Positions 28,310 to 40,500 of a stretch of DNA of 48,876 bases are shown here, one piece after another (within the stretch, counting starts at the first letter, position 1; every line of letters begins with the position of its first letter). This DNA is from an uncultured archaeon (lineage in GTDB: Archaea > Asgardarchaeota > Lokiarchaeia > Sigyniarchaeales > SOKP01), in assembly GCA_964493715.1 (NCBI GenBank), contig CAZBPC010000016.1, positions 1 to 48,876 of the forward strand, given 5' to 3'. The position numbers were made by a program, and so were the translations under genes. Below the pieces are notes generated by a model. It saw only the letters and a list, made by a program, of their open reading frames with translations, was not told the origin of the DNA and made no database searches.

Positions 28310-30334
28310 CTAACCCAAAGATAACTCGCTCATAATTTGTTTATTTTCAATTATTTTAGTGTAAATTATAAATATATCTCTCAAGATCTCTTTTATTTCA
28401 TTTAAATTATAAAATTTGTAGTTCTCTATTTTAAAATGAGGGTAAATGTATTTGAATTCTATCTCAGGAAAGTAATCTTTTGAATCTAGCAAAAAACTCA
28501 ATTCCTTACATTCCCGTTTATTTAAGTATAGTTCTTCAACTAATGCATTAGTCAATGCTTCGAAAATAATTATTAATTTTTCAATATCCTCCAATTTTAT
28601 TTTGTCGTTTACATCTAATTCACGAAAATCATGTCTTAATTGGTGTAAAAAATGATTTATTTTGCTAATATTAGAAATGGAAGATGGAAAATCATTCGGA
28701 ATCGGCAATCTTTTTATAAAACTACCATTATATCTTAGGTAACCTCCTGCCATATGAAGACTTCGATAAAGGGTATTAAAAAGATTATTCATAAATTCAG
28801 AATTCATAATAGCTAACAAACAAAAATAATCGTTAGTTGAAAATGATTCTATAATAACTTGGTATAATCCGGTAATGTTAACATATATTCCAGGATCATA
28901 AACCCATGTTAATTCTTTTGCTATCTCTCTAAAGATTAACTTTTCTGATTTAAGTAATTTCCACTTATCCTTATAATCATCTTGATAAGTAAAATAAGAT
29001 ATTTTTAATTTATTTTTTGCGATTGTTATGAGTTTATTAAATTTAATATGATATTTTCCGAGATTTCCCGTACCAATTATTAGTAAATCATGGTCACTCT
29101 TCTTTTCTTCTTGTATATTTTTAAAATGTTTAGCCCATTTTATAAATCCAAATGGTCTATATATTATTTTTAAACCTTGAAATTTCTCTTGTAATGATTT
29201 ATAGTTATCAAATATAGAATTTACTAAATCAATATCTCCAGATAATGGAATCACATGAGTTGGTAACTTCTTGAGAGAATTTTGAGATATCTTTTTCCAC
29301 CTTTCTTTTTTCTGATTTATATTTATATTTATTTCATCTAATTGAATAAAATCGAATAAATTTTCTTTTTCAAGGCTAATAATTTTGAGAGTTATGACTA
29401 TAGGATAAGCTGCTGCTTCTTTAAATATAGGAAGGGAAGAAATGTCAATGATTTGCCTTATTTGTGTGTCATGAACAATTTTTTTCCGAATTTTTATTCC
29501 ATAGTCCGCTGCCAAAAACTTATTTGTTATTAAGAAGGATAAATATCCTTGATTTTGGCTTAACAATTCCATAGATTTTTCTATGAACAAAATAGATAAG
29601 TCGTATAACCTATATGCGCTATCAAATATTTTTAATTTATTTTTATAGGCTTTATTTTCAATTTTTTTATTCTCTATATAAGGGGGATTTCCTAAAATAA
29701 TATCAAAAGGTTTAGTGTTAAATTCTAGGAGGTAATCAGAATGAAATATCTGAAAGTTAAGATGGGAATTATCTATAATAGATTCTAAGTTGTCTTTCAT
29801 ATTCAGAGCTAGTGATTCTAATTCTGTTTGAGAATACCACATCATCAATCTTGCTTTCGTAGCCAATAGCGCTCCTTTCTCAATTTCTACACCATAAATA
29901 TTATGTTCAATTATATAACGCTTTATTTCCTTTAAAGTAAGATTGCACGATAAAATTTTATATAGTTCAAGCAAAAAATTAGCCACACTCAACAAAAACC
30001 TTCCAGAACCGCAACTTGGATCCAGAATTTTCATTTGAGATATGTGTTTCCTTACTAAATTTTTAGTCTGCTCTTCTTGCTCGTTGAAAAACTTAATTAA
30101 AGGTAAATTATCTAATTGTTCCGTAAGGATATTTGGTATCCATTCTTTCTCCTTAATTTTATCAATTAAGTAAATTTTGAATACATTATTAGTTACGAAA
30201 TCGGCGATATGTTGAGGAGTATAAACAATTCCATTTGTTTTGTTCCCAATCTTATTTTGAAGCTTATCTTCCTCATGTTTTTTTAAAAAGTCTCTGAGGT
30301 ATGTGAAATGATTCTCCATAGATTTCTTTTTCAT
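28310..30334 (-). CDS. Amino-DNA methyltransferase (gamma class, Eco57I/TaqI-like)
   Basis: GIVYTP, LDPSCGSGRF, YGVEI, GNPPY and a C-terminal TRD-like region ending IKRLPIP. Confidence 0.88.
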   Translation of the reverse strand: MKKKSMENHFTYLRDFLKKHEEDKLQNKIGNKTNGIVYTPQHIADFVTNNVFKIYLIDKIKEKEWIPNILTEQLDNLPLIKFFNEQEEQTKNLVRKHISQMKILDPSCGSGRFLLSVANFLLELYKILSCNLTLKEIKRYIIEHNIYGVEIEKGALLATKARLMMWYSQTELESLALNMKDNLESIIDNSHLNFQIFHSDYLLEFNTKPFDIILGNPPYIENKKIENKAYKNKLKIFDSAYRLYDLSILFIEKSMELLSQNQGYLSFLITNKFLAADYGIKIRKKIVHDTQIRQIIDISSLPIFKEAAAYPIVITLKIISLEKENLFDFIQLDEINININQKKERWKKISQNSLKKLPTHVIPLSGDIDLVNSIFDNYKSLQEKFQGLKIIYRPFGFIKWAKHFKNIQEEKKSDHDLLIIGTGNLGKYHIKFNKLITIAKNKLKISYFTYQDDYKDKWKLLKSEKLIFREIAKELTWVYDPGIYVNITGLYQVIIESFSTNDYFCLLAIMNSEFMNNLFNTLYRSLHMAGGYLRYNGSFIKRLPIPNDFPSSISNISKINHFLHQLRHDFRELDVNDKIKLEDIEKLIIIFEALTNALVEELYLNKRECKELSFLLDSKDYFPEIEFKYIYPHFKIENYKFYNLNEIKEILRDIFIIYTKIIENKQIMSELSLG

Positions 30335-30429
30335 TATTCAATTACAAATTTATTAGGAATGAGCATCTAATTTATTATAATCAAATTATTTTAAATAATA
30401 TTCTTCTATACATATAGGTGTTTTTTAAT

Positions 30430-31338
30430 TTGGTTATTAAATCTTGGTTAATCAAGCTAATTGAAAATCCAAATCTCATATCTTCTTTAAAATTTGAAGA
30501 AATTTATCCAATTTTATTAAGAGCATATGATATCTTTAAGGAAGAAAATTTCATAATTGAATCAAATCTGATTAATCCTGATGATGTTGGATATGTAATT
30601 GGAGATATTCATGGAAATCTTAACTCATTAAATTATTTTACTAAATTAATTCAAGAAAATGACCCAAAACTTGTCGTATTTTTAGGAGACATCGTAGATA
30701 GGGGACCAGATCAATTGGAATGCTTCATAGTAGTCCTCGCATTAAAAATCTTATTCCCTCATAAAATTTTCCTTCTAAAGGGAAATCATGAAACTTTAGA
30801 AATGAACAAAGCGTATGGATTTTATGACCTCTTTCTAAATCGATTTAATGATCGAAATAAATTTAACTCGATCTTAATGGTTTATGATGTTTTACCACTA
30901 TGCAATATTATTAATAATGAAATTCTATGCGTTCATGGGGGGATTTCTAGGGATTTTAAATCATTAATAGCTCTGAAAAATCATAAAACCGCCAATCGTG
31001 AAAATTTGTCTCAATTTTTGAAGGATTCAATATTTGAAATGATGTGGAACGATCCAAAAGATGAAATCTCAGGATTTTCAAGAAGTTATAGGGGTGAGGG
31101 AATCTTTTTCTTTGGTGAAGATGTTTTTAACGAATTCATCGCGAAAAATAAATTAAAATGCCTTATACGATCTCATGAATGTTTTCGAGAGGGATATCGA
31201 TGGTTTTTTAATAAAAAATTGCTTTCAATCTTTTCCTCACATAATTATCATGGTAATCTCAATCCAAATCCAGCATCTTATGCGATTATAAGAGGAACGG
31301 AGATCGTTCCTACAAACATAAAAATTTTAGAGAATTAA
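30430..31338 (+). CDS. PPP-family Ser/Thr protein phosphatase
   Basis: GDIHG, GDIVDRG, KGNHE, VHGG, MWNDP, RSHE and FSSHNY motifs. Start is TTG 30430 or GTG 30418. Confidence 0.92.
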   Translation: MVIKSWLIKLIENPNLISSLKFEEIYPILLRAYDIFKEENFIIESNLINPDDVGYVIGDIHGNLNSLNYFTKLIQENDPKLVVFLGDIVDRGPDQLECFIVVLALKILFPHKIFLLKGNHETLEMNKAYGFYDLFLNRFNDRNKFNSILMVYDVLPLCNIINNEILCVHGGISRDFKSLIALKNHKTANRENLSQFLKDSIFEMMWNDPKDEISGFSRSYRGEGIFFFGEDVFNEFIAKNKLKCLIRSHECFREGYRWFFNKKLLSIFSSHNYHGNLNPNPASYAIIRGTEIVPTNIKILEN

Positions 31339-31800
31339 TTCTGGGAATAATTGCACGATTTCTGGAATTTTTTTAAGATGTTCTTTCCATCCGTCATTTA
31401 TATCTAAATCTATGGTTAATTTTTGAGAATTAATTAAATTTTCAGTGGGAACATACAAAAAGGCGTTGATTTTATTCCCCTTCTTTAATTCAACTTGAGT
31501 TCGAATGCGTTCAAATAAACCTAAATCCACACCTTCATATTTATTAAGTTGATTTAATTCCTCTTGAGTTACATCAAACTTTAACGCCCAAAATGAATCA
31601 GCTGAAGGAATTACAATTGGGAACCAATAATTTGGAGGAAAAACTCTCGTATAATTACGTACTAAACAGGGTTCCACATTTCCCTTATTTTTCCAGTAGC
31701 CCTGAGTGATAAATGTTCCGTAACCAACTACAGAAAAGTATTTTTTATAATTATTATCTAAATTCAATTCAGATATATCGTTTTTTTTGTATGATACCAT
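31327..31800 (-). CDS. Gamma-glutamylcyclotransferase (GGCT/AIG2-like) family protein
   Basis: VGYGTF, ELNQLNKYEG (catalytic Glu position) and FERIRTQV...AFLYV. Confidence 0.75.
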   Translation of the reverse strand: MVSYKKNDISELNLDNNYKKYFSVVGYGTFITQGYWKNKGNVEPCLVRNYTRVFPPNYWFPIVIPSADSFWALKFDVTQEELNQLNKYEGVDLGLFERIRTQVELKKGNKINAFLYVPTENLINSQKLTIDLDINDGWKEHLKKIPEIVQLFPELIL

Positions 31801-31893
31801 CCACTATCTCACCAGCATTTTCAAGAATCACGGAGATGATTAATTTTCTGTAATTAAATATATATTTCTAATACTTTACTTTTTATTTGAGTT

Positions 31894-32268
31894 ATGAAAA
31901 TAAAAAAGAAAAGACTGATCGCGCTTAAAAATCCTCGTTTACGGAAAATTAGGACTGAATTACGAAATCTATTAAAGAAAGCATTCAATGACCACTATTC
32001 AAGATATTTTAAACAAGAAGATGCTATCAGAAATGATTCAAGTTTAAGTTATGACGAAAAGAAGAAGAAATGTACCGAGATCGAAAATAGAAGTGAAAAA
32101 TTTTATATTGCTTTCATTCATTCGCTTATTGGATGTCGTTTGTGTGGCAAAACAGATTTGGACTTGGTATATAACCCAATTTTAGATACTTGGTACTACG
32201 AGTGATGTTATAAGTTTAACCAAAAATGCTAAGATGAGCTACTAACACCCGGTGTATATTATCCATAA
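31894..32268 (+). pseudogene. Probable decayed zinc-finger protein gene
   Basis: The ORF has CRLC and stops at WYYE*. In-frame continuation reads CYKFNQKC*DELLTPGVYYP*, consistent with a broken second CxxC and two premature stops. Confidence 0.5.
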
Positions 32269-32270
32269 AA

Positions 32271-32318
32271 TACTTGGGTTGCATCTGGTTTAATAAACAA
32301 CAAGTTGTTCCCACAAAT
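32271..32318 (-). repeat. Diverged duplicate of the Sm gene 3' end
   Basis: Translates ICGNNLLFIKPDATQV versus IRGNNLLFIKPDASQI in the Sm gene (32410-32457). Confidence 0.85.
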
Positions 32319-32403
32319 TTTCAATATCCTTGAGTGAAGGATGTTCTATATCCAATCATAGTAAAATTATAATTTTTACTATCAGAATTCAAGATAGATA
32401 CTT

Positions 32404-32664
32404 TTACATTATTTGTGAGGCATCTGGCTTTATAAATAAGAGATTATTACCTCTGATGAAAATCTCGTTGTATTTGGCTACAGGGCTCCCATCCATTATC
32501 TCCACTGCATTTTCAAGAATCATATTCATATACGCATCGATCTCTTTTAATAAGCCCTTGTATTCTGTTCCATCTTTCAATCTGAGTATTATTTCAGAAT
32601 TTTGAGCAGCTTGAAGAATATGTAACGGATTTTTGGACCGCTGACCTGTGTTATTTCTTTCCAT
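32404..32664 (-). CDS. Sm-like archaeal protein (SmAP/Lsm)
   Basis: Sm1 motif LKDGTEYKGLLKEIDAYMNMILENA and Sm2 motif FIRGNNLLFI. Confidence 0.93.
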   Translation of the reverse strand: MERNNTGQRSKNPLHILQAAQNSEIILRLKDGTEYKGLLKEIDAYMNMILENAVEIMDGSPVAKYNEIFIRGNNLLFIKPDASQIM

Positions 32665-32792
32665 TTTTTTTCAATCTCTTTTCAAAAAAAAATCTATTAT
32701 TGATATTATTTAAAAGAATATTTTAAAGAAAAACTTTTTTGAATTAAAACCTTATCATCGCTTAAATTTAACTCTAAAATGGGATTTTTGAT

Positions 32793-33407
32793 TTGGGAGA
32801 TCAACAAATAAACTTTGCTAAAAAGAAAAACATAATTGACAGTTATAATTCCTCACATGAATATTATGACGATAGATATAGAAATATCCAGTTCCAAAAA
32901 TATGAGCTCGCTTTTAAAGGCGCTAATTTACATTCAAAATTAATTTTAGATGCAGGATGTGGCACTGGATTATTATTTGTTCATCTATTAAAAACATTTC
33001 CTGAATCAAAAAGTACTCGATCATTTCTTATATGTCTTGATTTATCTCTAAACATGCTAAAAAAAATAAAAATTAGAGAAGAATTTAAGGAAAAAAAAGC
33101 TAATGTGTGTTTAATTTTATCAGATATGGAAAACTTGCCATTTAGAGAAAATTTGTATGATGTTATCGTTTCTATAACATCTTTACAGAATTTACCAGAT
33201 ATTTTCCAAGGAGTTTTGGAGTTAATTCGGGTAAGTAAACGAGGAACGGAATTTTATTTATCAATACTAAAAAAAGATGCTCGATTAAAAAAGGTATTAG
33301 CCAAATTTAAGCCATATTTTGATGATTATAGTACGATAAAAAATGAGGGGTTGGAAGATTTAATCATTCTTGGAATTTTAAATAATAAAAAAATTCCTTT
33401 TAATTGA
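32793..33407 (+). CDS. Class I SAM-dependent methyltransferase
   Basis: LDAGCGTG, LDLSLNML and DMENLPF motifs. Confidence 0.88.
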   Translation: MGDQQINFAKKKNIIDSYNSSHEYYDDRYRNIQFQKYELAFKGANLHSKLILDAGCGTGLLFVHLLKTFPESKSTRSFLICLDLSLNMLKKIKIREEFKEKKANVCLILSDMENLPFRENLYDVIVSITSLQNLPDIFQGVLELIRVSKRGTEFYLSILKKDARLKKVLAKFKPYFDDYSTIKNEGLEDLIILGILNNKKIPFN

Positions 33408-34278
33408 AGAAAGAAGCTAGGATATCTTGAACGTCACTTTGGATATTAAATTTCCTGTAGAAATATGTCGATAAGTTAGATAAGTCTCGTTCGAGCAATG
33501 ATCGTGCATTTGGGTGGTCACTAGCCACCCATTGTAACCAATCGATTATCAAAATATTTTGTTTTTCATCGACTATGATATTAAACTCTCCTAAATCCCC
33601 ATGTACTATCTTTGCTTCTTGAAATATTATTTTCATTTGTTTTATTATCTTATTAAAAATTTTTTCGGGTTTATTGAGATCATTAAAATAAACTAATTCT
33701 TTTCCTTTTAGGTAAGACATAACAATCATGTGTCTGTTATAAGCAATTGGTTTTGGTGTATCTAATTTTAATTTAAAAATTTTAGTTAAGGCTTCAAATT
33801 CTCTTCTCGCTGCTAATCTATTAATGTATAACCAAGAAGAATGTCCTCGGTTCCCTATTAAATCCCTTAATTGCTTTATACTTTTGAAACTTGTTCGTCC
33901 CATTCTAAAAATCTTTAAAGCCAGAATATTTTCATCATCATCCATGCAACCATATACATCAGATTCTTTCCCTTTACCTATGATAGGTCCTAATTGACCA
34001 ATAACTTTTTTCTCCACTAATGCGTGAAGAGCTAAAACATCATAACCAATTGAATTAAGAGTATAACCAATTTTGTATGAAGAGGAATCTCTTATTATGA
34101 GATTATACTTATGAACTTTTTTTAAGCGAAAAAGAGTTTCTTCCAGTTTATAACGGGAATAAAATCTGATGTTATCAACAGTTACATATTCTGAACGTTT
34201 CATCCCGATTTCAATTGCCATTAAGATTCTTAGATCCTCCTTTTCAAGAACAGTAAGTAATTGGGCTGCTTCAGACAT
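33400..34278 (-). CDS. rio2: RIO2 atypical Ser kinase
   Basis: N-terminal wHTH with GYDVLAL; GKGKESDVY, GRTSFK, HGDLGEFNI and IDWLQ motifs. Confidence 0.93.
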   Translation of the reverse strand: MSEAAQLLTVLEKEDLRILMAIEIGMKRSEYVTVDNIRFYSRYKLEETLFRLKKVHKYNLIIRDSSSYKIGYTLNSIGYDVLALHALVEKKVIGQLGPIIGKGKESDVYGCMDDDENILALKIFRMGRTSFKSIKQLRDLIGNRGHSSWLYINRLAARREFEALTKIFKLKLDTPKPIAYNRHMIVMSYLKGKELVYFNDLNKPEKIFNKIIKQMKIIFQEAKIVHGDLGEFNIIVDEKQNILIIDWLQWVASDHPNARSLLERDLSNLSTYFYRKFNIQSDVQDILASFFN

Positions 34279-34312
34279 GGTATTAATCGTCTTTATTCAA
34301 GTTCAAAAATTT

Positions 34313-35098
34313 TTAAAAAATATAACTTTTATAAGTTTTGATAAAAGAAATGAGTTTTGCTAGGTTTGGTAACTCAAAAATACATAAACAGATTGTCACG
34401 ATTATTAAAAATCTAAATAAATCTGCGAAATTAATGAAGTAAAGAGATTCCGTTGATCCTTCTTGAAATAAAAAAAGAAAAATCCCTTGATTCAAGTAAA
34501 AGATCATTCCTATAGAAATTATTATTCCTGAAAGAGAAATAATTAAAGCTGTAATCTCATATTCGTAGATAGATGCTCCAATATTGACTATTAAAGCCAC
34601 TAAAGTAAAGCTTACCATCATTATTGCAAAATTGATCCAATTTAGAAAATTTATTGAAGAAATCGAAACATTTGGACCAATTCGTGTCCAATTAAGTGAT
34701 CCCCATAAATTTAACATCATCAACGCAGGCAAGATAAGTGAGATAAGACTCATTATAAAATAAATTCTTATTGTAATAAATCTAGTGAAGACATATTTCT
34801 CGGCATCTTCTTCACGTTTTGCTGTTTCTAGCATACTATTCAATTTGGTTTTGATATGGGAAGGAAAATCTTTGGATAAAACAATCAATTCAAATTTAGA
34901 ATCTTGAAAACTTGAAAAGATATCTATTAATGAAGCCTTTCCTTTTTTTAATTTATCTTTCGTGCTTTTTGGACCATTCCATAAAAAAGCTTTCTTTTGA
35001 GTCACATCTAAAAAAACACATAAATCATGGAATAATAAAACATGTTCTTCTTCAATCCAACTATTCTTAACTTCATTAAAAATATATGTATTAAGCAT
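34313..35098 (-). CDS. Gelsolin-like domain fused to four TM helices
   Basis: N-terminal HDLCVFLDVTQKKAFLWNGPKSTKDKLKKG fits the gelsolin D-x-F-x-L-D...W-x-G pattern; four hydrophobic segments follow. Confidence 0.6.
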   Translation of the reverse strand: MLNTYIFNEVKNSWIEEEHVLLFHDLCVFLDVTQKKAFLWNGPKSTKDKLKKGKASLIDIFSSFQDSKFELIVLSKDFPSHIKTKLNSMLETAKREEDAEKYVFTRFITIRIYFIMSLISLILPALMMLNLWGSLNWTRIGPNVSISSINFLNWINFAIMMVSFTLVALIVNIGASIYEYEITALIISLSGIIISIGMIFYLNQGIFLFLFQEGSTESLYFINFADLFRFLIIVTICLCIFELPNLAKLISFIKTYKSYIF

Positions 35099-35182
35099 TA
35101 AGTAATTTAACTCTGATTATTTATTAATTTTTTCTATATATTTTAAGAGTTGTTCAAATACAAATAAAATTAAGTAAAAAAT

Positions 35183-36082
35183 TTAATCTTCCTTTATTCT
35201 TGATTCGATCCCAGACCATAAATCGATAATATATTCTTTATAATTCTCGATTTGTTCTTGAGAAAGAGATTTAAATCGTTTTTGTGCTTTAATATATTCT
35301 TCAATTGGTTTTCTTTTCGATGAATCGAGGAATTTCTTACTATCTTTTGATAGGATGAATTTACCTTCAATAACTTCATAAAGTGGCCAAAATCCCGTTT
35401 GAACTGCTAATCTACCTATTTCAATAGAACTACTAGGGAGATACCCCCATCCTGGAGGGCAAGGGGCAAGAATATGGATATATTTTGGACCATATATATT
35501 TTTTGCACGTGAAAATTTCTCATAAATATCTAAAGGATAAGAGGATATCGCCGTGGCTACATATGGAATACCATGAGCCTCCATAATTTTAGGCATATTC
35601 TTTTTATATCCAATTTTGCCTCCTGGAGTGGTGGTACTGAAAGCACCTGGAGGGGTACTTCCACTTCTTTGGACACCAGTGTTCATATATGCTTCATTAT
35701 CATAACACGCATAAATGAAGTTTGTACCTCTTTCTGCAGCTCCACTTAAACTTTGAATTCCAATATCTACTGTCCCTCCATCACCTGCGAATGCAACTAC
35801 ATTGATATCTTGATCAAGCCCTTTATCTTCAAGTGATGCAACAATTCCTGATGCAGATGCTCCAGTAGTTGCAAATGGAGTGTGCAACACTGAAACTTTA
35901 GTTGTACAAAATCCCTGCATTCCGTGAAGAACCGTTAAACAACTAGCAGGAACGGTAATAATTGTTTTAGGTCCTAAAGCTTTAAGCGCAATTCTATAAA
36001 TCAATGCCATTGAACATCCAGCACATGCTCTGGTACCTGGATATATATATTCTTCTTCAGGTACATCCATAACATTTACCAA
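35183..36082 (-). CDS. porB: Pyruvate/2-oxoacid:ferredoxin oxidoreductase beta subunit
   Basis: ACAGC, GDGGT, YDNEAYMNTG and PCPPGW motifs. Confidence 0.92.
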   Translation of the reverse strand: MVNVMDVPEEEYIYPGTRACAGCSMALIYRIALKALGPKTIITVPASCLTVLHGMQGFCTTKVSVLHTPFATTGASASGIVASLEDKGLDQDINVVAFAGDGGTVDIGIQSLSGAAERGTNFIYACYDNEAYMNTGVQRSGSTPPGAFSTTTPGGKIGYKKNMPKIMEAHGIPYVATAISSYPLDIYEKFSRAKNIYGPKYIHILAPCPPGWGYLPSSSIEIGRLAVQTGFWPLYEVIEGKFILSKDSKKFLDSSKRKPIEEYIKAQKRFKSLSQEQIENYKEYIIDLWSGIESRIKED

Positions 36083-36085
36083 TTT

Positions 36086-37363
36086 TTATTTCGCCTCCTT
36101 AAAAAAAGTGGATTCGTCATATTCACTTAATTCTTTTAATTGTAATCCTAAAAATTCAGTAGTTTGAGATATTTCTCCAGTTTTTTCTTGATCTAATGTT
36201 CTGTTGACACCTTCAATGAGTTGTTCATTAGTTATATCCCTTCCACCTAATCCTACTATGAAACCTTTGATAAATGGATTTTCTTTCAAACCATATAAAG
36301 CAGATTTTAATTCATAACATAAAACACCTTCATATCCATAACCTATGTCTCTATCAAAAACTACTATTGTTTTTTTGTTCTTTAGAAGCTCTCTTAACTG
36401 TTTTGCAGGATACGGTCTGAATAGTTTTAAACTAACCAAGCCTACATTTAAACCTTTTTGTCTTAATTTTTTTAAAACTGTTCTAGCTTGGGAAGCAACA
36501 GAGCCCATTGCTAAGATAATAATATCAGCATCATCAAATTCAACTGTTTTAAATAGTCCATTTCCGTATGATCTTCCGAATCTATTTGCAAAATCATCAT
36601 GTACTTCTTGAATTATTTCAATTGAATTTTCTAATGCCTTTTGGAGGGCATATCTGTATTCAAAATATCCCGGAGCAGTTCCCTCGGATCCTCTATCACG
36701 GATATGTGGTGTGGTGACGGGGTCTATCCCCTTAACTTGAGAAATATCAGAAAGATTAATGTGATGTTTTAAAGGAGGTAAGAATTTATCAACTTCTTTT
36801 TGATCCTCTAAAATCACGGGCATCATTGTATGTGATAGAATGTACCCATCATAGCCCACTATTACAGGTAAATTTACTCTTCGATCTTCTGCAATTTTAA
36901 ATGCTTGTAAATTAGTATCATAAATTTCTTGATTATCTTCGCACATAAATTGAATCCAACCCACATCCCGGATAGTAACAAAGTCTGAATGATCTGTCCA
37001 TACAGACCATGGAGCACCTAGGCTTCTTGTAGCCAAATTTATAATTATTGGTAATCTATTACCCGAAGTCCACGGTAACATTTCATACATATATTCTAAT
37101 CCGTGAGCTGATGTAGCGGTTCCAACTCTAGATCCGGTTGCAGAAGCCGCAACACAAACTGCGAGAGCAGAATGCTCTGATTCAACTTTTACAAATCGCG
37201 CATTTAGTTTTCCATCATTTATAAATTCTGCAATTTTTTCCACAACTGGGCTTTGAGGCGTAATAGGATAGGCAGCAACAACTCCTACTTTGACTTGTCT
37301 TAATGCATGAGCAGCGGCATAATTACCAGTTAAAATCTTAGTCTCTTCCGTTGCATTATTAAT
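36086..37363 (-). CDS. porA: Pyruvate/2-oxoacid:ferredoxin oxidoreductase alpha subunit; probable ATT start
   Basis: The frame extends upstream of the called GTG 37243 through TGNYAAAHA and AYPITPQ to ATT 37363, with a stop at 37370-37372. Also ESEHSA and GLGGRD. Confidence 0.9.
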   Translation of the reverse strand: MNNATEETKILTGNYAAAHALRQVKVGVVAAYPITPQSPVVEKIAEFINDGKLNARFVKVESEHSALAVCVAASATGSRVGTATSAHGLEYMYEMLPWTSGNRLPIIINLATRSLGAPWSVWTDHSDFVTIRDVGWIQFMCEDNQEIYDTNLQAFKIAEDRRVNLPVIVGYDGYILSHTMMPVILEDQKEVDKFLPPLKHHINLSDISQVKGIDPVTTPHIRDRGSEGTAPGYFEYRYALQKALENSIEIIQEVHDDFANRFGRSYGNGLFKTVEFDDADIIILAMGSVASQARTVLKKLRQKGLNVGLVSLKLFRPYPAKQLRELLKNKKTIVVFDRDIGYGYEGVLCYELKSALYGLKENPFIKGFIVGLGGRDITNEQLIEGVNRTLDQEKTGEISQTTEFLGLQLKELSEYDESTFFKEAK

Positions 37364-37658
37364 CGATTTTCACCTCTTCCATAGTTATTGCTTTTACGGG
37401 ACACTCTTCCATACAAATGCCACATCCCTTACAATAATCAAAATCTATCGTGGGAGGGATTGTACGTGTAATAACTGCATCAGGACAATATAACCAACAA
37501 TTAAAACAAGAAAGTTTACCAGATTTTGCAGGTATGCATTTATCTAAATTAATTACGGGTTTTTTTGAACTCCAACTTCCGGTTCTTCCTGCTTCACCCT
37601 TTACTGATTTTTGCACCGATCCAAGAATTTTTTGATAATCCTTTTTAATATTAGTCAT
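37359..37658 (-). CDS. porD: 2-oxoacid:ferredoxin oxidoreductase delta subunit
   Basis: TGSW, C..CFNCWLYCPD and YCKGCGICMEECP motifs. Confidence 0.92.
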   Translation of the reverse strand: MTNIKKDYQKILGSVQKSVKGEAGRTGSWSSKKPVINLDKCIPAKSGKLSCFNCWLYCPDAVITRTIPPTIDFDYCKGCGICMEECPVKAITMEEVKID

Positions 37659-37872
37659 AATATCACAATCATTAATGAATAAAAGCTAATATGAAATGTA
37701 ATAACTATTAAAATAAAATATCTTTGGAAATAATACAAAACTAAAATGAAGTTTGTTATTATAATTCAATCATTTTACTTTTTAGAAATACATATATATT
37801 TAGGGTTTTCATAATCTTTTTGAATATTCTATTAGTGATAACTCCTAAAAATAAATTCTTGAGGATAGAAAA

Positions 37873-40500
37873 TTGGAGTATAATAAAGAAGAAGTTAGGG
37901 AGAGATTCAAAGAACTATTTGAATATTCATTAGAATTAATATATGTTAATGATCTTAATGGAAACTTCCTTGATGCAAATGATGTTACTTTATTTACTCT
38001 AGGATATGACCGTGAGGATATTCCAAAGATATCGTTTGTAGATTTGCTCGATCAAGAAAACCTCATAAAAGCTTACAAGTTTACGAAAGAAATTCGTAAA
38101 ACGGGAAGACAGTCTCAATGGAGCGAATACAAAATTAAGGCAAAAGACGGAGATTATATTTATATTGAAACCTATGGAATTCCACTTAAAAAAGATGGTA
38201 AAATTTACGCTATATTGGGGATTGGTAAAAATGTCACAGATCGTAAAGTCTCTGAGCTCAAACTGAAAGATTCTGAGGAGATGTTTAAGGCCATTTATAA
38301 AGAAGGCCCAATTCCCGCTTATACCTGGCAAAAATTAGGAAATGATTTCATTTTAATTGATTTCAATAAAGCAGCGGAGGAAATCAGTAAGGAAAATGTC
38401 AAAAATTTCATAGGCTTTAAAGCTTCTGTAATATATAAGGATCGCCCTGACATTTTAAATCACCTAAGGCAGTGTATGGAGAAAAAAGAACGTGTCAGGG
38501 CGGAAATAAGGTACAAATTTGAACTCTCAGATGAAGAAAAACATATATTTTCATATTTTGGATATGTTAATCCTGAATTAATTGTGGAACATGCTGAAGA
38601 TATTACCGAACGAAAAAAAGCGGTTGTACGACTTCAAGAATCTGAGGAAAAATATAAAGAGATGATTAATAATTTAGATGTGGGTTTTTATCAAGTCAGT
38701 TTAGATGGAATCATGCTAAATCATAATCCGGCACATAATGAGATTTTAGAGTATGAATTTTCAGAAAGCTTGGTAGGTAAAAAGGTAACAGATTTTTGGC
38801 AATTTCCTGAAGAAAGAGAAAAATATCTAAAAGAGATTTTAGAAAATAATTATGCTAAGAATTATATTTGCCCATCATTAACAAAAAATGGTAAAAAAGT
38901 TGTTGTTCAATTAAACTCACATTTAATGCGGAATAAAGAAGGAAATCCAGTTGGTATTGAAGGAACTTTTATCGACATTACAGAAAAATATAATTTAGAG
39001 CAAGGATTAATAGAATCAGAAGAGAAATTCCGATCAATAGCAGAACAATCGTTATTGGGCATATGCATCATACAAGATGATTTGGTTAAATATATTAATC
39101 AACAATTTGCTGATTTGATAGGATACACAGTCGAAGAAGTTAAGAATTGGAGGGTTGGTTGGTTTGCAAACGTTATACATCCAGATGATAGGGATTGGGT
39201 AGTGGAACAAGCTAAGAAGAAACAGTTGGGTTCAAAAGATGTAAGAAATTATTATCAATATCGGTTAATAAATAAATCTGGCAAAATTTTATGGTTAGAA
39301 AATCTCTCTAAAACCATATTATTTAGAGGAAGAAATGCGAACTTAGTTACTGTTGTGAATATTACGGAACGAAAAATTGCTGAGCAAAAATTAAGAGAAT
39401 CAGAGAAAAAATATCGAAATATCTATGAAAACACACCTTTTTCAGTAGTATTAATTAATTCTCAAGGCGTCGTTGTGGATGCTAATCCAACAACCGAAGA
39501 AATGTTTGGTTATAAGAGAGATGATGTAATTGGAAAAAAGTTTATGGATCTTTCAATAATACATCCAGATTACTCATCCACAATTTTCGAACTATTTAAA
39601 AAGTTTATAAAAGGAGAAAAAATGCATCGAATAGATATTCAAATACAAAAAAAGAACGGAATTAATTTTTGGGCGAATCTTCAAGCAGCATTGATGAATA
39701 TCAACGATAATACTTATGTGCAAGCACTTTTTACAGACATTACTGAAAAAAAAGAAGCTGAATTATTGGTTAATAAAGAAATTAGTAAATTAAAAGAATT
39801 AGAAAAGATTCGGAAGAATTTAATTTCTCGAGTTTCTCATGAACTAAAAACACCACTCGTTTCTATAAGTGGAGGTTCAGAATTATTATTGAATGTATAT
39901 AATGATGAATTCTCATCTGAAGCGTTAGAAATTCTAGAACTTATTGAAAAGGGAGGAAAACGATTAAAATATCTTGTAGATCGTTTAGTTGATATCTCGA
40001 AAATCGATTATGGAAAATTTGAGTTAGAGATAAAATTAGATGATATAAGTGAAATTATTAGGGAATGTTGCCGTGAAATATCAAATTTATTAAGAAATCG
40101 CAAGATTAACTTGAACCTTTCTATTCCTGATAGCATATTTATAAAATTAGATCGAATTCGAATTGAACAAGTGATTACAAACTTACTCTCAAATGCAATC
40201 AAAAATTCACCACCCAATGGAGAGGTAAATGTTATTCTGAAACAAGCTGATGATTGGATTGAGTTAATTGTAAAAGATACTGGGATTGGTTTTACAAAAG
40301 AAGAAATGGATTCACTATTCACTCGTTTTGGTAAAATAGAACGATACGGTGAAGGTTTTGAATATTTGGATATTCAAGGATCAGGTTTAGGATTATTTAT
40401 CGTAAAAGAGATCGTTAACTTACATAAGGGAGAAATAGAGGTCTTTTCAGAGGGAAGGAATAAAGGAGCTAAATTTATTGTGAGATTACCAATTAATTAA
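37873..40500 (+). CDS. Cytoplasmic multi-PAS sensor histidine kinase (about 5 PAS + HisKA + HATPase)
   Basis: Five (D/N)(I/V)T(D/E)(R/K) PAC ends; SHELKTPL, NLLSNAIK, DTGIG and GSGLGL; no TM segment or receiver domain. Confidence 0.93.
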   Translation: MEYNKEEVRERFKELFEYSLELIYVNDLNGNFLDANDVTLFTLGYDREDIPKISFVDLLDQENLIKAYKFTKEIRKTGRQSQWSEYKIKAKDGDYIYIETYGIPLKKDGKIYAILGIGKNVTDRKVSELKLKDSEEMFKAIYKEGPIPAYTWQKLGNDFILIDFNKAAEEISKENVKNFIGFKASVIYKDRPDILNHLRQCMEKKERVRAEIRYKFELSDEEKHIFSYFGYVNPELIVEHAEDITERKKAVVRLQESEEKYKEMINNLDVGFYQVSLDGIMLNHNPAHNEILEYEFSESLVGKKVTDFWQFPEEREKYLKEILENNYAKNYICPSLTKNGKKVVVQLNSHLMRNKEGNPVGIEGTFIDITEKYNLEQGLIESEEKFRSIAEQSLLGICIIQDDLVKYINQQFADLIGYTVEEVKNWRVGWFANVIHPDDRDWVVEQAKKKQLGSKDVRNYYQYRLINKSGKILWLENLSKTILFRGRNANLVTVVNITERKIAEQKLRESEKKYRNIYENTPFSVVLINSQGVVVDANPTTEEMFGYKRDDVIGKKFMDLSIIHPDYSSTIFELFKKFIKGEKMHRIDIQIQKKNGINFWANLQAALMNINDNTYVQALFTDITEKKEAELLVNKEISKLKELEKIRKNLISRVSHELKTPLVSISGGSELLLNVYNDEFSSEALEILELIEKGGKRLKYLVDRLVDISKIDYGKFELEIKLDDISEIIRECCREISNLLRNRKINLNLSIPDSIFIKLDRIRIEQVITNLLSNAIKNSPPNGEVNVILKQADDWIELIVKDTGIGFTKEEMDSLFTRFGKIERYGEGFEYLDIQGSGLGLFIVKEIVNLHKGEIEVFSEGRNKGAKFIVRLPIN

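Follow-up and report, generated by a model that had tools for sequence, protein, structure and literature searches.

A divergent gelsolin-homology domain joined to four predicted membrane helices in a protein family of Asgard archaea

The stretch of DNA analysed here, referred to below as the window, comprises the 48,876 nucleotides of contig CAZBPC010000016.1 (C16) of an uncultured archaeon from the order Sigyniarchaeales (Asgardarchaeota, Lokiarchaeia; assembly GCA_964493715.1). The window has a G+C content of about 30%, and the genome to which it belongs amounts to 3.68 Mb in 160 contigs, with a completeness score of 100%. Between the genes of a 2-oxoacid:ferredoxin oxidoreductase (OFOR) and the gene of a Rio2 kinase lies a gene that begins with ATG and encodes 261 amino acids followed by a stop codon (Table 1). 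Its product, named GelTM here, consists of a gelsolin-homology (GH) domain and four predicted transmembrane (TM) helices. The gene, first pointed out in a preliminary description, coincides exactly with an entry in the list of open reading frames (ORFs), and its relatives and conserved gene order exclude a chance ORF.

Gene, fold and membrane topology of GelTM

The structure of GelTM was modelled with AlphaFold2 on an alignment of 53 sequences (the window protein and 52 of its 111 relatives), and the model reached a mean pLDDT of 90.1 and a pTM of 0.64. The elements of its N-terminal domain follow the order b-b-b-b-a-b-a (residues 2-99), with a pLDDT of 73-92 per 10-residue block. This is the arrangement of the GH fold, a mixed beta-sheet between a long and a shorter C-terminal helix within about 90-110 aa, which was recognized in the model, by Foldseek and by VIA, and was found again in a second subfamily. 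The top match of the Foldseek search of the PDB was 7c2f_B, the ProGel of Thorarchaeota in complex with actin (E 2.6e-4, prob 1.00, TMt 0.73, root-mean-square deviation (rmsd) 3.1, 89 columns, 16% identity), and all of the 34 matches listed above rank 50 were entries for gelsolin, villin, adseverin, CapG or Asgard gelsolin (2DGel). Independently of Foldseek, VIA-align matched 7c2f_D (Z 10.5, rmsd 2.5, 85 residues aligned), adseverin (5a1k_B, Z 10.1) and the complex of Lokiarchaeota 2DGel with actin (7whg_G, Z 9.7). No gelsolin-like domain of the Sec23/24 type was found among the matches listed by Foldseek for both subfamilies or by VIA.

At the sequence level, neither the full protein nor residues 1-100 gave a gelsolin match in Pfam at E ≤ 10, where DUF202 (E 9.5, full protein) was the only match, and 0 matches were returned when the single sequence was compared with the PDB sequences by phmmer. 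The family profile detected 26 distinct PDB sequences at E ≤ 10, 23 from the gelsolin superfamily and 3 from RbcX, and once again the top match was 7c2f_B (E 5.5e-4). The RbcX matches, which were also obtained with 6 of the 53 members, covered only the region of helix 2 and the linker (E 0.018-0.23) and were discarded as helical noise. When the 53 members were scanned singly with PF00626, matches at E ≤ 1 were obtained for 23 (best 1.3e-4), the window protein having none; weak matches were also seen in 13/35 sequences of the second subfamily (best E 0.0033) and in 7/27 distant or longer members, the best of these, a longer relative, scoring 20.7 bits against the gathering score of 21 bits. The Pfam threshold was missed because the sequence of GelTM is too divergent.

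The best-conserved part of the N-terminal domain contains the motif HDLCVFLDVTQKKAFLWNGPKSTKDKLKKG, with D25 kept in 50/53 sequences and D31, W40 and G42 in 52/53 each. The WxG motif is a criterion by which gelsolin domains are recognized in PMC9433394. In GelTM it corresponds to W40 and G42, each present in 52/53 sequences of the window-type clade; over both subfamilies G42 was found in 38/38 sequences and W40 in 30/38, the other 8 having Y or F. Since the family profile, the AlphaFold2 model, Foldseek, VIA and the WxG motif agree, the gelsolin-homology fold of the N-terminal domain is secure, and both its structure and its motif place GelTM in the gelsolin fold superfamily.

The preliminary description had taken the first ~90 residues for a gelsolin core followed by four hydrophobic segments of TM length. 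Both readings hold: the structural comparisons of the N-terminal domain returned the gelsolin fold, and the AlphaFold2 model places four long helices behind it (residues 107-136, 148-179, 182-202 and 224-260), with short loop strands at 138-147 and 219-223, in agreement with hydropathy. Over the 53 sequences, the mean number of K and R residues was 4.17 in the 15 residues before TM helix 1 and 2.70 in the C-terminal tail, against 0.45, 0.26 and 0.32 in loops 1, 2 and 3, and hydropathy revealed no hydrophobic signal-like segment within residues 1-100. Owing to this positive-inside charge bias and the presence of four helices, we infer an N-in/C-in topology, with the gelsolin domain and the C-terminus in the cytoplasm and loops 1 and 3 directed outward. 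The bias thus points the N-terminal domain to the side of the membrane where actin is. Outer loop 3 of GelTM reads NQGIFLFLFQEGS.

No known family was recognized for residues 100-261 in Pfam, where the DUF202 match was at noise level, or in NCBIfam, which holds no model for the GelTM family. A match of the protein type found in Candidatus (Ca.) Lokiarchaeum ossiferum to the NCBIfam Rv2732c family (E 0.023) was also at noise level. When residues 100-261 were used for an atlas feature search, a single cluster was obtained (Promethearchaeota, without Pfam annotation), with a score of 0.86, below the 0.9 used as the lead level. VIA-align against 48,161 chains returned generic up-down four-helix bundles (de novo designs with Z 15.0-12.6, chemoreceptor ligand-binding domains and talin rod); these scores lie within the range common for helical bundles, and therefore no family was named. 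With its membrane helices, GelTM gives a known domain family a new architecture; taken by itself, apart from the proposed actin binding, this architecture is very likely correct.

Table 1. Positions of GelTM, its parts, the adjoining genes and the small gelsolin-associated ORFs (window coordinates unless a locus is named)
Feature	Position	Strand	Basis and remarks
GelTM, whole gene	34313..35098	-	ORF listing; 111 full-length relatives at E ≤ 1e-3; 56 syntenic loci
Residues 1-99, predicted cytoplasmic gelsolin-homology (ProGel-like) domain	34802..35098	-	AlphaFold2, Foldseek, VIA, profile against PDB, WxG motif
Secondary structure of the N-terminal domain	residues: strands 2-8, 13-16, 26-31, 36-41; long helix 47-62; strand 70-73; helix 80-99		AlphaFold2 model
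Residues 100-106, short basic juxtamembrane linker	34781..34801	-	K+R mean 4.17 (residues 92-106, 53 sequences); model break between helices 80-99 and 107-136
Residues 107-136, TM helix 1	34691..34780	-	Alignment, AlphaFold2, hydropathy and charge; R111 at least 90% conserved
Residues 137-147, predicted outer loop 1, small beta-hairpin (strands 138-140, 143-147)	34658..34690	-	AlphaFold2; K+R mean 0.45
Residues 148-179, TM helix 2	34562..34657	-	Alignment, AlphaFold2; terminal E179 invariant in the window-type clade
Residues 182-202, TM helix 3	34493..34555	-	AlphaFold2, alignments; G197 and Y201 kept in both subfamilies
Residues 203-223, predicted outer loop 3, motif NQGIFLFLFQEGST	34430..34492	-	Top conservation 0.76; L208 and F209 invariant; K+R mean 0.32
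Residues 224-261, TM helix 4 and short basic, predicted cytoplasmic tail	34316..34429	-	Alignment, AlphaFold2; P244 and Y256 invariant; tail K+R mean 2.70
Rio2 kinase gene	33400..34278	-	34 nt downstream, same strand; Pfam RIO1 1.9e-49, Rio2_N 1.4e-20; adjacent in 55/56 loci
OFOR delta, alpha and beta genes	35183..37658	-	Upstream, same strand, 84-nt gap; Pfam TPP_enzyme_C, POR_N/PFOR_II, Fer4
Gene pair in the closed f3 genome	L116:988-1266 and L116:1382-1663	- and +	
100-aa ORF beside the C30 paralogue	L085:845-1147	-	

Distribution and subfamilies of GelTM

Out of 1,688 candidates, the search for relatives of GelTM retained 111 clusters at E ≤ 1e-3. Their proteins are 259-275 aa long with 100% query cover in nearly every case, and their source labels were 'hypothetical protein' from metagenome-assembled genomes of Promethearchaeota/Lokiarchaeota. 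An exhaustive HMMER search over 1.84 billion representatives yielded 65 matches at E ≤ 1e-3, 23 of which were at E ≤ 1e-30, and revealed a distant group of 270-320 aa with 21-28% identity, aligned from residue ~4 to ~250. A profile including this distant group was used to survey 398 genomes of the phylum. In the order of the window genome, a GelTM match at E ≤ 1e-5 was detected in 133/151 genomes (114/132, 1/1, 14/14 and 4/4 in families f1 to f4), about 126 of these matches being strong and 7 weak (E 1e-5 to 1e-10), and none was detected in the 3 genomes of the sister order of the same class. Matches in other Asgard lineages had E values of ~1e-6 to 1e-7; a single one reached 2.6e-19, in a 430-aa frame, and was limited to profile positions 31-122. 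These matches resemble soluble gelsolin domains. GelTM was missing from complete genomes of genus g6 in the same family (0/4), two of which contain actin. Judged from these searches, the GelTM family is single-copy, uniform in length and confined to one Asgard order.

A tree was built from 136 full-length rows, obtained from 172 collected ones with a k-mer redundancy filter. In it, 97 rows form the window-type clade (SH-aLRT 99) and 27 form a separate clade of their own (support 98), beside smaller groups. In 23 rows of the separate clade the protein ends in a C-terminal tail of the form ...P(S/T)ILRDK.... Modelled alone on 35 sequences, this tail subfamily showed the same architecture (pLDDT 83.8), and its top Foldseek match was again 7c2f_B (E 1.4e-4, TMt 0.73). 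The window-type and tail sequences are only ~20% identical; therefore, their convergence on the same fold and the same top match makes a modelling artefact very unlikely.

The tail itself was examined in the member at L081:1498-2349 (-). Its residues ~256-283, at the predicted cytoplasmic C-terminus, carry the conserved pattern E..R..S.PTILRDK.P..L.EI. The sequence ...LDEMRLSAKPTILRDK..., in which PTILRDK is conserved, was modelled with low confidence as a helix (258-265) and a turn (269-272). This layout recalls the amphipathic helix and LKKT-like motif of WH2, in the divergent subfamily and not in the window protein. No Pfam WH2 match at E ≤ 10 was obtained for the 35 tail members or for the isolated 45-aa tail, although the HMMER filters lose most weak matches to such short motifs, and the WH2 identity was kept as a lead only. 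Another small group (P0141-like, ~310 aa) has a different tail, containing K(E/D)W.

Additionally, a second and very divergent membrane-anchored gelsolin-like paralogue of 263 aa was found in the window genome (C30:5369-6157 (+), equivalent to L085:1489-2280 (+)). It has ...SDIVVIVDSSRNIIWYFEGRNSS... in its N-terminal part, followed by four hydrophobic segments, scores 62.9 bits against the broad family profile, has a branch length of 2.94 and gave no match in Pfam or NCBIfam. Its flanking genes encode a CDP-alcohol phosphatidyltransferase (PF01066, 4.7e-13) and a CTP-dependent riboflavin kinase-like protein. A closed f3 genome contains a stand-alone 92-aa gelsolin-like ORF with the signature of the GelTM N-terminal domain (PF00626, E 0.0074), 25% identical to the head of the C30 paralogue (E 3e-8). 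Next to it, a divergently transcribed ORF of 93 aa shares 41% identity (E 4e-20) with the 100-aa ORF that adjoins the C30 paralogue, and this small neighbour matches no Pfam family. From these identities of heads and neighbours it follows that the same gene pair occurs in two forms, in which the gelsolin-like partner is either soluble or membrane-anchored.

Proposed actin binding at the membrane and alternative roles

The window genome contains four actin-family matches, the best being a 381-aa protein with 440 bits to PF00022, and eight gelsolin-repeat matches, seven of them over the Pfam cut-off; no TM segments were found in its other gelsolin ORFs. The actin and soluble gelsolins named in the preliminary description for Asgard archaea are therefore encoded in this genome as well. 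Two adjoining soluble gelsolin genes (C18:14300-15881 (-), or L005/L011) encode a 338-aa two-domain gelsolin with a Cys-rich, zinc-ribbon-like tail and a gelsolin of 403 aa whose single domain carries a long helical extension. Asgard gelsolins, ProGel included, are described as binding and regulating actin in vitro (PMC7444086, PMC9433394), ProGel, which acts at about 100-250 uM, by binding the sides of filaments and bundling them (PMC7444086). According to the text of PMC13716822, Lokiactin fills dynamic membrane protrusions, Asgard protrusions move fast and the cells crawl; the regulators named there for the protrusions are soluble profilins and gelsolins, together with an ARF GTPase and BAR-domain candidates.

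On this background, GelTM may act as a direct coupler between actin and the membrane. Its ProGel-like domain would be held on the cytoplasmic face by its own C-terminal helix (80-99) and a linker of ~7 residues to the four-helix bundle. Given this short connection to TM helix 1, the gelsolin domain is predicted to lie at the inner membrane surface, where it would bind Lokiactin directly as a monomer, at the side of a filament or at the barbed end, probably independently of calcium. The two outward loops would form a small, highly conserved cap, and the conserved bundle and outer loop might add self-association or contact with a surface partner. Actin binding is inferred from kinship, since whatever the measure the nearest relatives are gelsolin domains that bind actin and were crystallised with it; calcium independence and a function of the outer loop are likewise proposed. 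The complete proposal of a membrane-bound ProGel-like head that binds Lokiactin and couples it to the membrane is tentative and, in our estimate, falls a little short of an even chance. As for the earlier suggestion of a gelsolin domain on a four-helix anchor linking actin to the membrane, the fold, the fusion and a cytoplasmic placement are supported; the conserved membrane domain and above all its outward loop, the absence of the L. ossiferum member from a Lokiactin pull-down and the lack of a cytoskeletal neighbour speak against a simple anchor.

Several findings weigh against such a coupling. The membrane domain is conserved to the same degree as the N-terminal domain (majority-residue fraction 0.62 for residues 107-261 and 0.60 for residues 1-100), both having a mean identity of 0.47 to the window protein. 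Outer loop 3 (203-223) is the most conserved stretch of all (0.76), which a pure tether would not need, followed by the C-terminal tail (0.75). Of the seven invariant columns of the 53-sequence alignment, six are on the membrane side (E179, L208, F209, F230, P244 and Y256) and one, P79, is in the N-terminal domain. The membrane domain, as conserved as the gelsolin domain, therefore appears to be more than a passive anchor. The sequence likeness to gelsolins is also marginal, with no Pfam match for GelTM and its members below the gathering score of PF00626; a profile-profile comparison by hhalign with the six domains found in soluble gelsolins of the window genome gave a probability of 46% and an E of 2e-4 over 27 columns, a specific yet modest match that spans the core ...LD...IY.W.G..S. 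Moreover, the conserved neighbours (OFOR, Rio2, an S-adenosylmethionine (SAM) methyltransferase and LSm) show no cytoskeletal link in the Pfam annotation of the window and the syntenic loci.

The positions that contact calcium and actin in human gelsolin G1 were located by an ungapped motif register, not by structural superposition. In this register, and by G1 numbering, D25 is presumably the type II Asp, residue 49 (G42+7) its Glu partner, residue 61 the type I Asp and residue 55 the Ile inserted into the actin cleft. D25 is invariant over both subfamilies (38/38). Residue 49 is K or R in 47/53 sequences and residue 61 is hydrophobic, so that by this register the canonical calcium sites look unconserved, and residue 55, the presumed Ile position, is a variable 'x' in the family consensus; these results also count against the proposed coupling. 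Actin binding by GelTM, if it occurs, would probably be independent of calcium, and, as a hypothesis only, a salt bridge between D25 and K/R49 might take the place of bound calcium. The exposed basic residues K44 (47/53), K47 (36/53), K/R49 (47/53) and K52 (40/53) are conserved, and such a patch could serve for contact with acidic actin as readily as with anionic lipids. Therefore, the rival explanations were kept at substantial weight.

Of the 24 sequencing entries listed for window 33400-36100, none was on record as RNA. Protein-level data were available for a member of the family from Ca. Lokiarchaeum ossiferum. A search with the tail-type ORF retrieved a 100%-identical cluster labelled 'hypothetical protein NEF87_002464 [Ca. 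Lokiarchaeum ossiferum]'; this protein (GNAMCCOK_02483 / UYP46179.1) is of the tail type, ~20% identical to the window protein, and has no Pfam match at E ≤ 1e-3. Its accession was searched in 13 of the 14 supplementary files of PMC13716822. Intensity-based absolute quantification (iBAQ) values were recorded for it in 15/15 proteome runs, with a log2 iBAQ that averaged 15.79 and placed it at rank 1232 (PMC13716822, supplementary tables), in a species for which the article counts 3,061 expressed proteins. It is absent from the Lokiactin co-immunoprecipitation (co-IP) sheet of the same article, which has ~1,500 rows with the same identifiers and in which, as described there, five soluble GH proteins were enriched; this absence is a further point against the proposed coupling. 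It is also absent from the sheet of named proteins (2DGel1, 2DGel2, Gel1, Gel2 and GelX; PMC13716822). The absence from the co-IP is only mild evidence against a stable association with actin, since the preprint version itself considers that membrane-associated or transmembrane proteins are probably under-represented in the experiment (10.1101/2025.11.30.690169). The article reports nine GH-domain proteins in L. ossiferum, with G1 domains taken from InterPro annotations (PMC13716822). Surveys of GH proteins by domain annotation miss divergent members such as the GelTM family, which has no Pfam annotation.

Alternatively, the gelsolin fold may have been repurposed, the N-terminal domain serving as a cytoplasmic regulatory or partner-binding module without actin contact and the main business of the protein lying in the bundle and the outer loop, for example in sensing, in the passage of small solutes or as a scaffold for a surface complex. 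We regard this as possible, although doubtful. It would agree with an L. ossiferum member that is expressed yet not recovered with Lokiactin, with a TM domain and outer loop 3 conserved at least as well as the N-terminal domain and holding most of the invariant residues, and with neighbours that belong to metabolism or ribosome biogenesis. Residues E16 and H24/D25, invariant in this family and not found in common with ProGel in the profile alignment, the unconserved calcium and actin-contact positions (in the motif register) and the existence of other gelsolin-like domains not known to bind actin point the same way. By contrast, the closest structures in every search, among the matches listed, were actin-binding gelsolins, led by ProGel and including 2DGel on actin; Pfam, VIA, the atlas and NCBIfam offered no specific membrane-protein fold or family for the TM part; and its authors acknowledge that the co-IP disfavours membrane proteins (10.1101/2025.11.30.690169).

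The same basic patch, which has the pattern G-P-K-S-x-K-x-K/R-x-x-K and lies where the long helix begins, might instead face the lipids, binding the head groups of anionic or inositol lipids in the inner leaflet so that GelTM organises or senses lipid domains, or is itself regulated by the membrane in the way that phosphoinositides act on eukaryotic gelsolin and Asgard profilin. Gelsolin binds phosphatidylinositol 4,5-bisphosphate (PIP2) via basic clusters. The conservation of the four basic positions and the ~7-residue linker, which in the model keeps the domain at the membrane surface, would suit such a role, and L. ossiferum expresses homologues of phosphoinositide-synthesis enzymes and has a profilin whose action is reversed by phosphatidylinositol phosphates, according to 10.1101/2025.11.30.690169. 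However, the patch fits the acidic surface of actin just as well, and juxtamembrane regions are often basic simply by the positive-inside rule; a lipid module seems quite improbable to us. That the ORF is non-functional, or that its likeness to gelsolin is an artefact of modelling, could be argued from a single sequence without a Pfam match or a PDB sequence match. This reading is effectively refuted by conservation over the whole length in 111 clusters, a gene order that is fixed across 56 genomes, confident models of two ~20%-identical subfamilies with the same fold and top match, a sequence-only profile match to the same PDB entry (7c2f_B) and the detection of the L. ossiferum member as a protein.

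Coupling of actin to the membrane could be carried one step further. The GelTM head would hold Lokiactin at the membrane in protrusions and the outward loop would engage the surface or substrate, as a one-polypeptide forerunner of the multi-protein adhesion linkage of eukaryotes; the WH2-like motif of the tail subfamily, on the same face, would then provide a two-site grip like that of 2DGel domain 1 and its linker. This extension is rather unlikely. GelTM is nevertheless a conserved and cheap-to-test candidate for the missing link between actin and membrane: a member of the family is expressed, and the orthologue UYP46179.1 of the cultured strain makes it experimentally reachable. Should GelTM not bind actin, it would still exemplify a gelsolin fold put to a new use at the membrane before the origin of eukaryotes.

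Ponticulin of Dictyostelium, which is small and integral to the membrane, binds F-actin and nucleates it, and GelTM, if it couples actin to the membrane, would resemble it in binding actin directly at the cytoplasmic face with no adaptor. The likeness concerns the proposed function only, since ponticulin is not known to have a gelsolin domain or any relation to GelTM in sequence or fold.

Among the gelsolins, ProGel (7c2f; PMC7444086) is the closest to GelTM. Both have a single GH domain of ~90 aa and an Asgard origin, with the common core ...(I/L)D....K.IY.W.G.K.... and ProGel is the best structural match of both GelTM subfamilies and the best match of the family profile; in the motif register no canonical calcium site is evident in GelTM, and calcium binding is placed after ProGel in the text of PMC7444086. 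However, ProGel is a soluble protein of 92 aa, and GelTM adds a four-helix membrane domain of ~155 aa; the identity is 16-18%, and the GelTM-specific invariant E16 and H24/D25 align to no identical residue of ProGel. Actin binding is established for ProGel and proposed for GelTM. GelTM is thus ProGel-like in its head and is not a ProGel, because it is neither soluble nor single-domain.

The Asgard architectures described are ProGel, 1DGelX and 2DGel (PMC7444086) and extended 2DGels (PMC9433394). GelTM shares the fold and the WxG motif with 1DGelX and 2DGel and with eukaryotic gelsolin, villin, adseverin and CapG (PF00626), and also the principle, put forward in the discussion of PMC7444086, that a C-terminal appendage gives a gelsolin domain added function. 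By contrast, the published forms are described with or without C-terminal extensions or zinc ribbons, not with TM segments, and none of the GelTM members scanned exceeds the gathering score of Pfam. The Sec23 and Sec24 proteins of COPII are a case of a gelsolin fold at the membrane without demonstrated actin binding (PMC7444086), but these are large, soluble, multi-domain coat proteins, and none of their chains was among the matches listed. The word 'transmembrane' has 0 occurrences in the main texts of PMC7444086, PMC9433394 and PMC13716822. As the preliminary description had supposed, no account of the fusion was found in the literature searched: the full-text search returned no description of a membrane-anchored archaeal gelsolin, although an architecture drawn in figure supplements would escape it, and no integral-membrane actin linker of Asgard archaea turned up there.

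Gene neighbourhood

The synteny of GelTM was analysed in 56 species-level loci recovered from genome contigs. The order OFOR-delta/alpha/beta, GelTM, Rio2 is fixed, GelTM lying on the same strand between OFOR beta (54/56) and Rio2 (55/56). OFOR alpha was found in 53, OFOR delta in 48, the SAM methyltransferase in 52, LSm in 48 and a PAS histidine kinase in 46 of the loci. These genes belong to a block of ~10 kb (window 28310-40500; loci L016-L071), which nearly all of the 56 genomes retain without a change of order or orientation and which also includes genes for an Eco57I-type methylase, a metallophosphoesterase and a GGACT-like protein. Across the block loci the identity of GelTM is 36-50%, except for the two closest loci, with 84-85%.

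The tail-type gene has TFB as its neighbour and is not part of the OFOR/Rio2 block. An operon with a shared function was considered and discarded: the housekeeping functions in the block are mutually unrelated and the tail-type gene lies beside TFB, and therefore the arrangement was read as conserved gene order. T-runs and a TATA-like, AT-rich stretch occur in the flanking spacers (84 and 34 nt), which is not informative in a genome with ~30% G+C.

Two further observations were made at these loci. In the window, the frame of the OFOR alpha ORF (36086-37243 (-)) is open for ~38 codons upstream of the listed GTG (37244-37358, ...NNATEETKILTGNYAAAHALRQVKVGVVAAYPITPQSPV), and this extension contains no ATG, GTG or TTG. 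The Pfam POR_N match begins at profile position 23 and the ORFs of the syntenic loci are ~45 aa longer, and the cause is a start codon that is non-canonical or has been lost, or else an error in the sequence. Locus L037 (DATKTW010000096.1) comes from a record titled 'Candidatus Nanopelagicaceae bacterium' and carries the full Asgard block (OFOR, GelTM, Rio2, the methyltransferase and LSm); therefore, this contig looks mis-binned.

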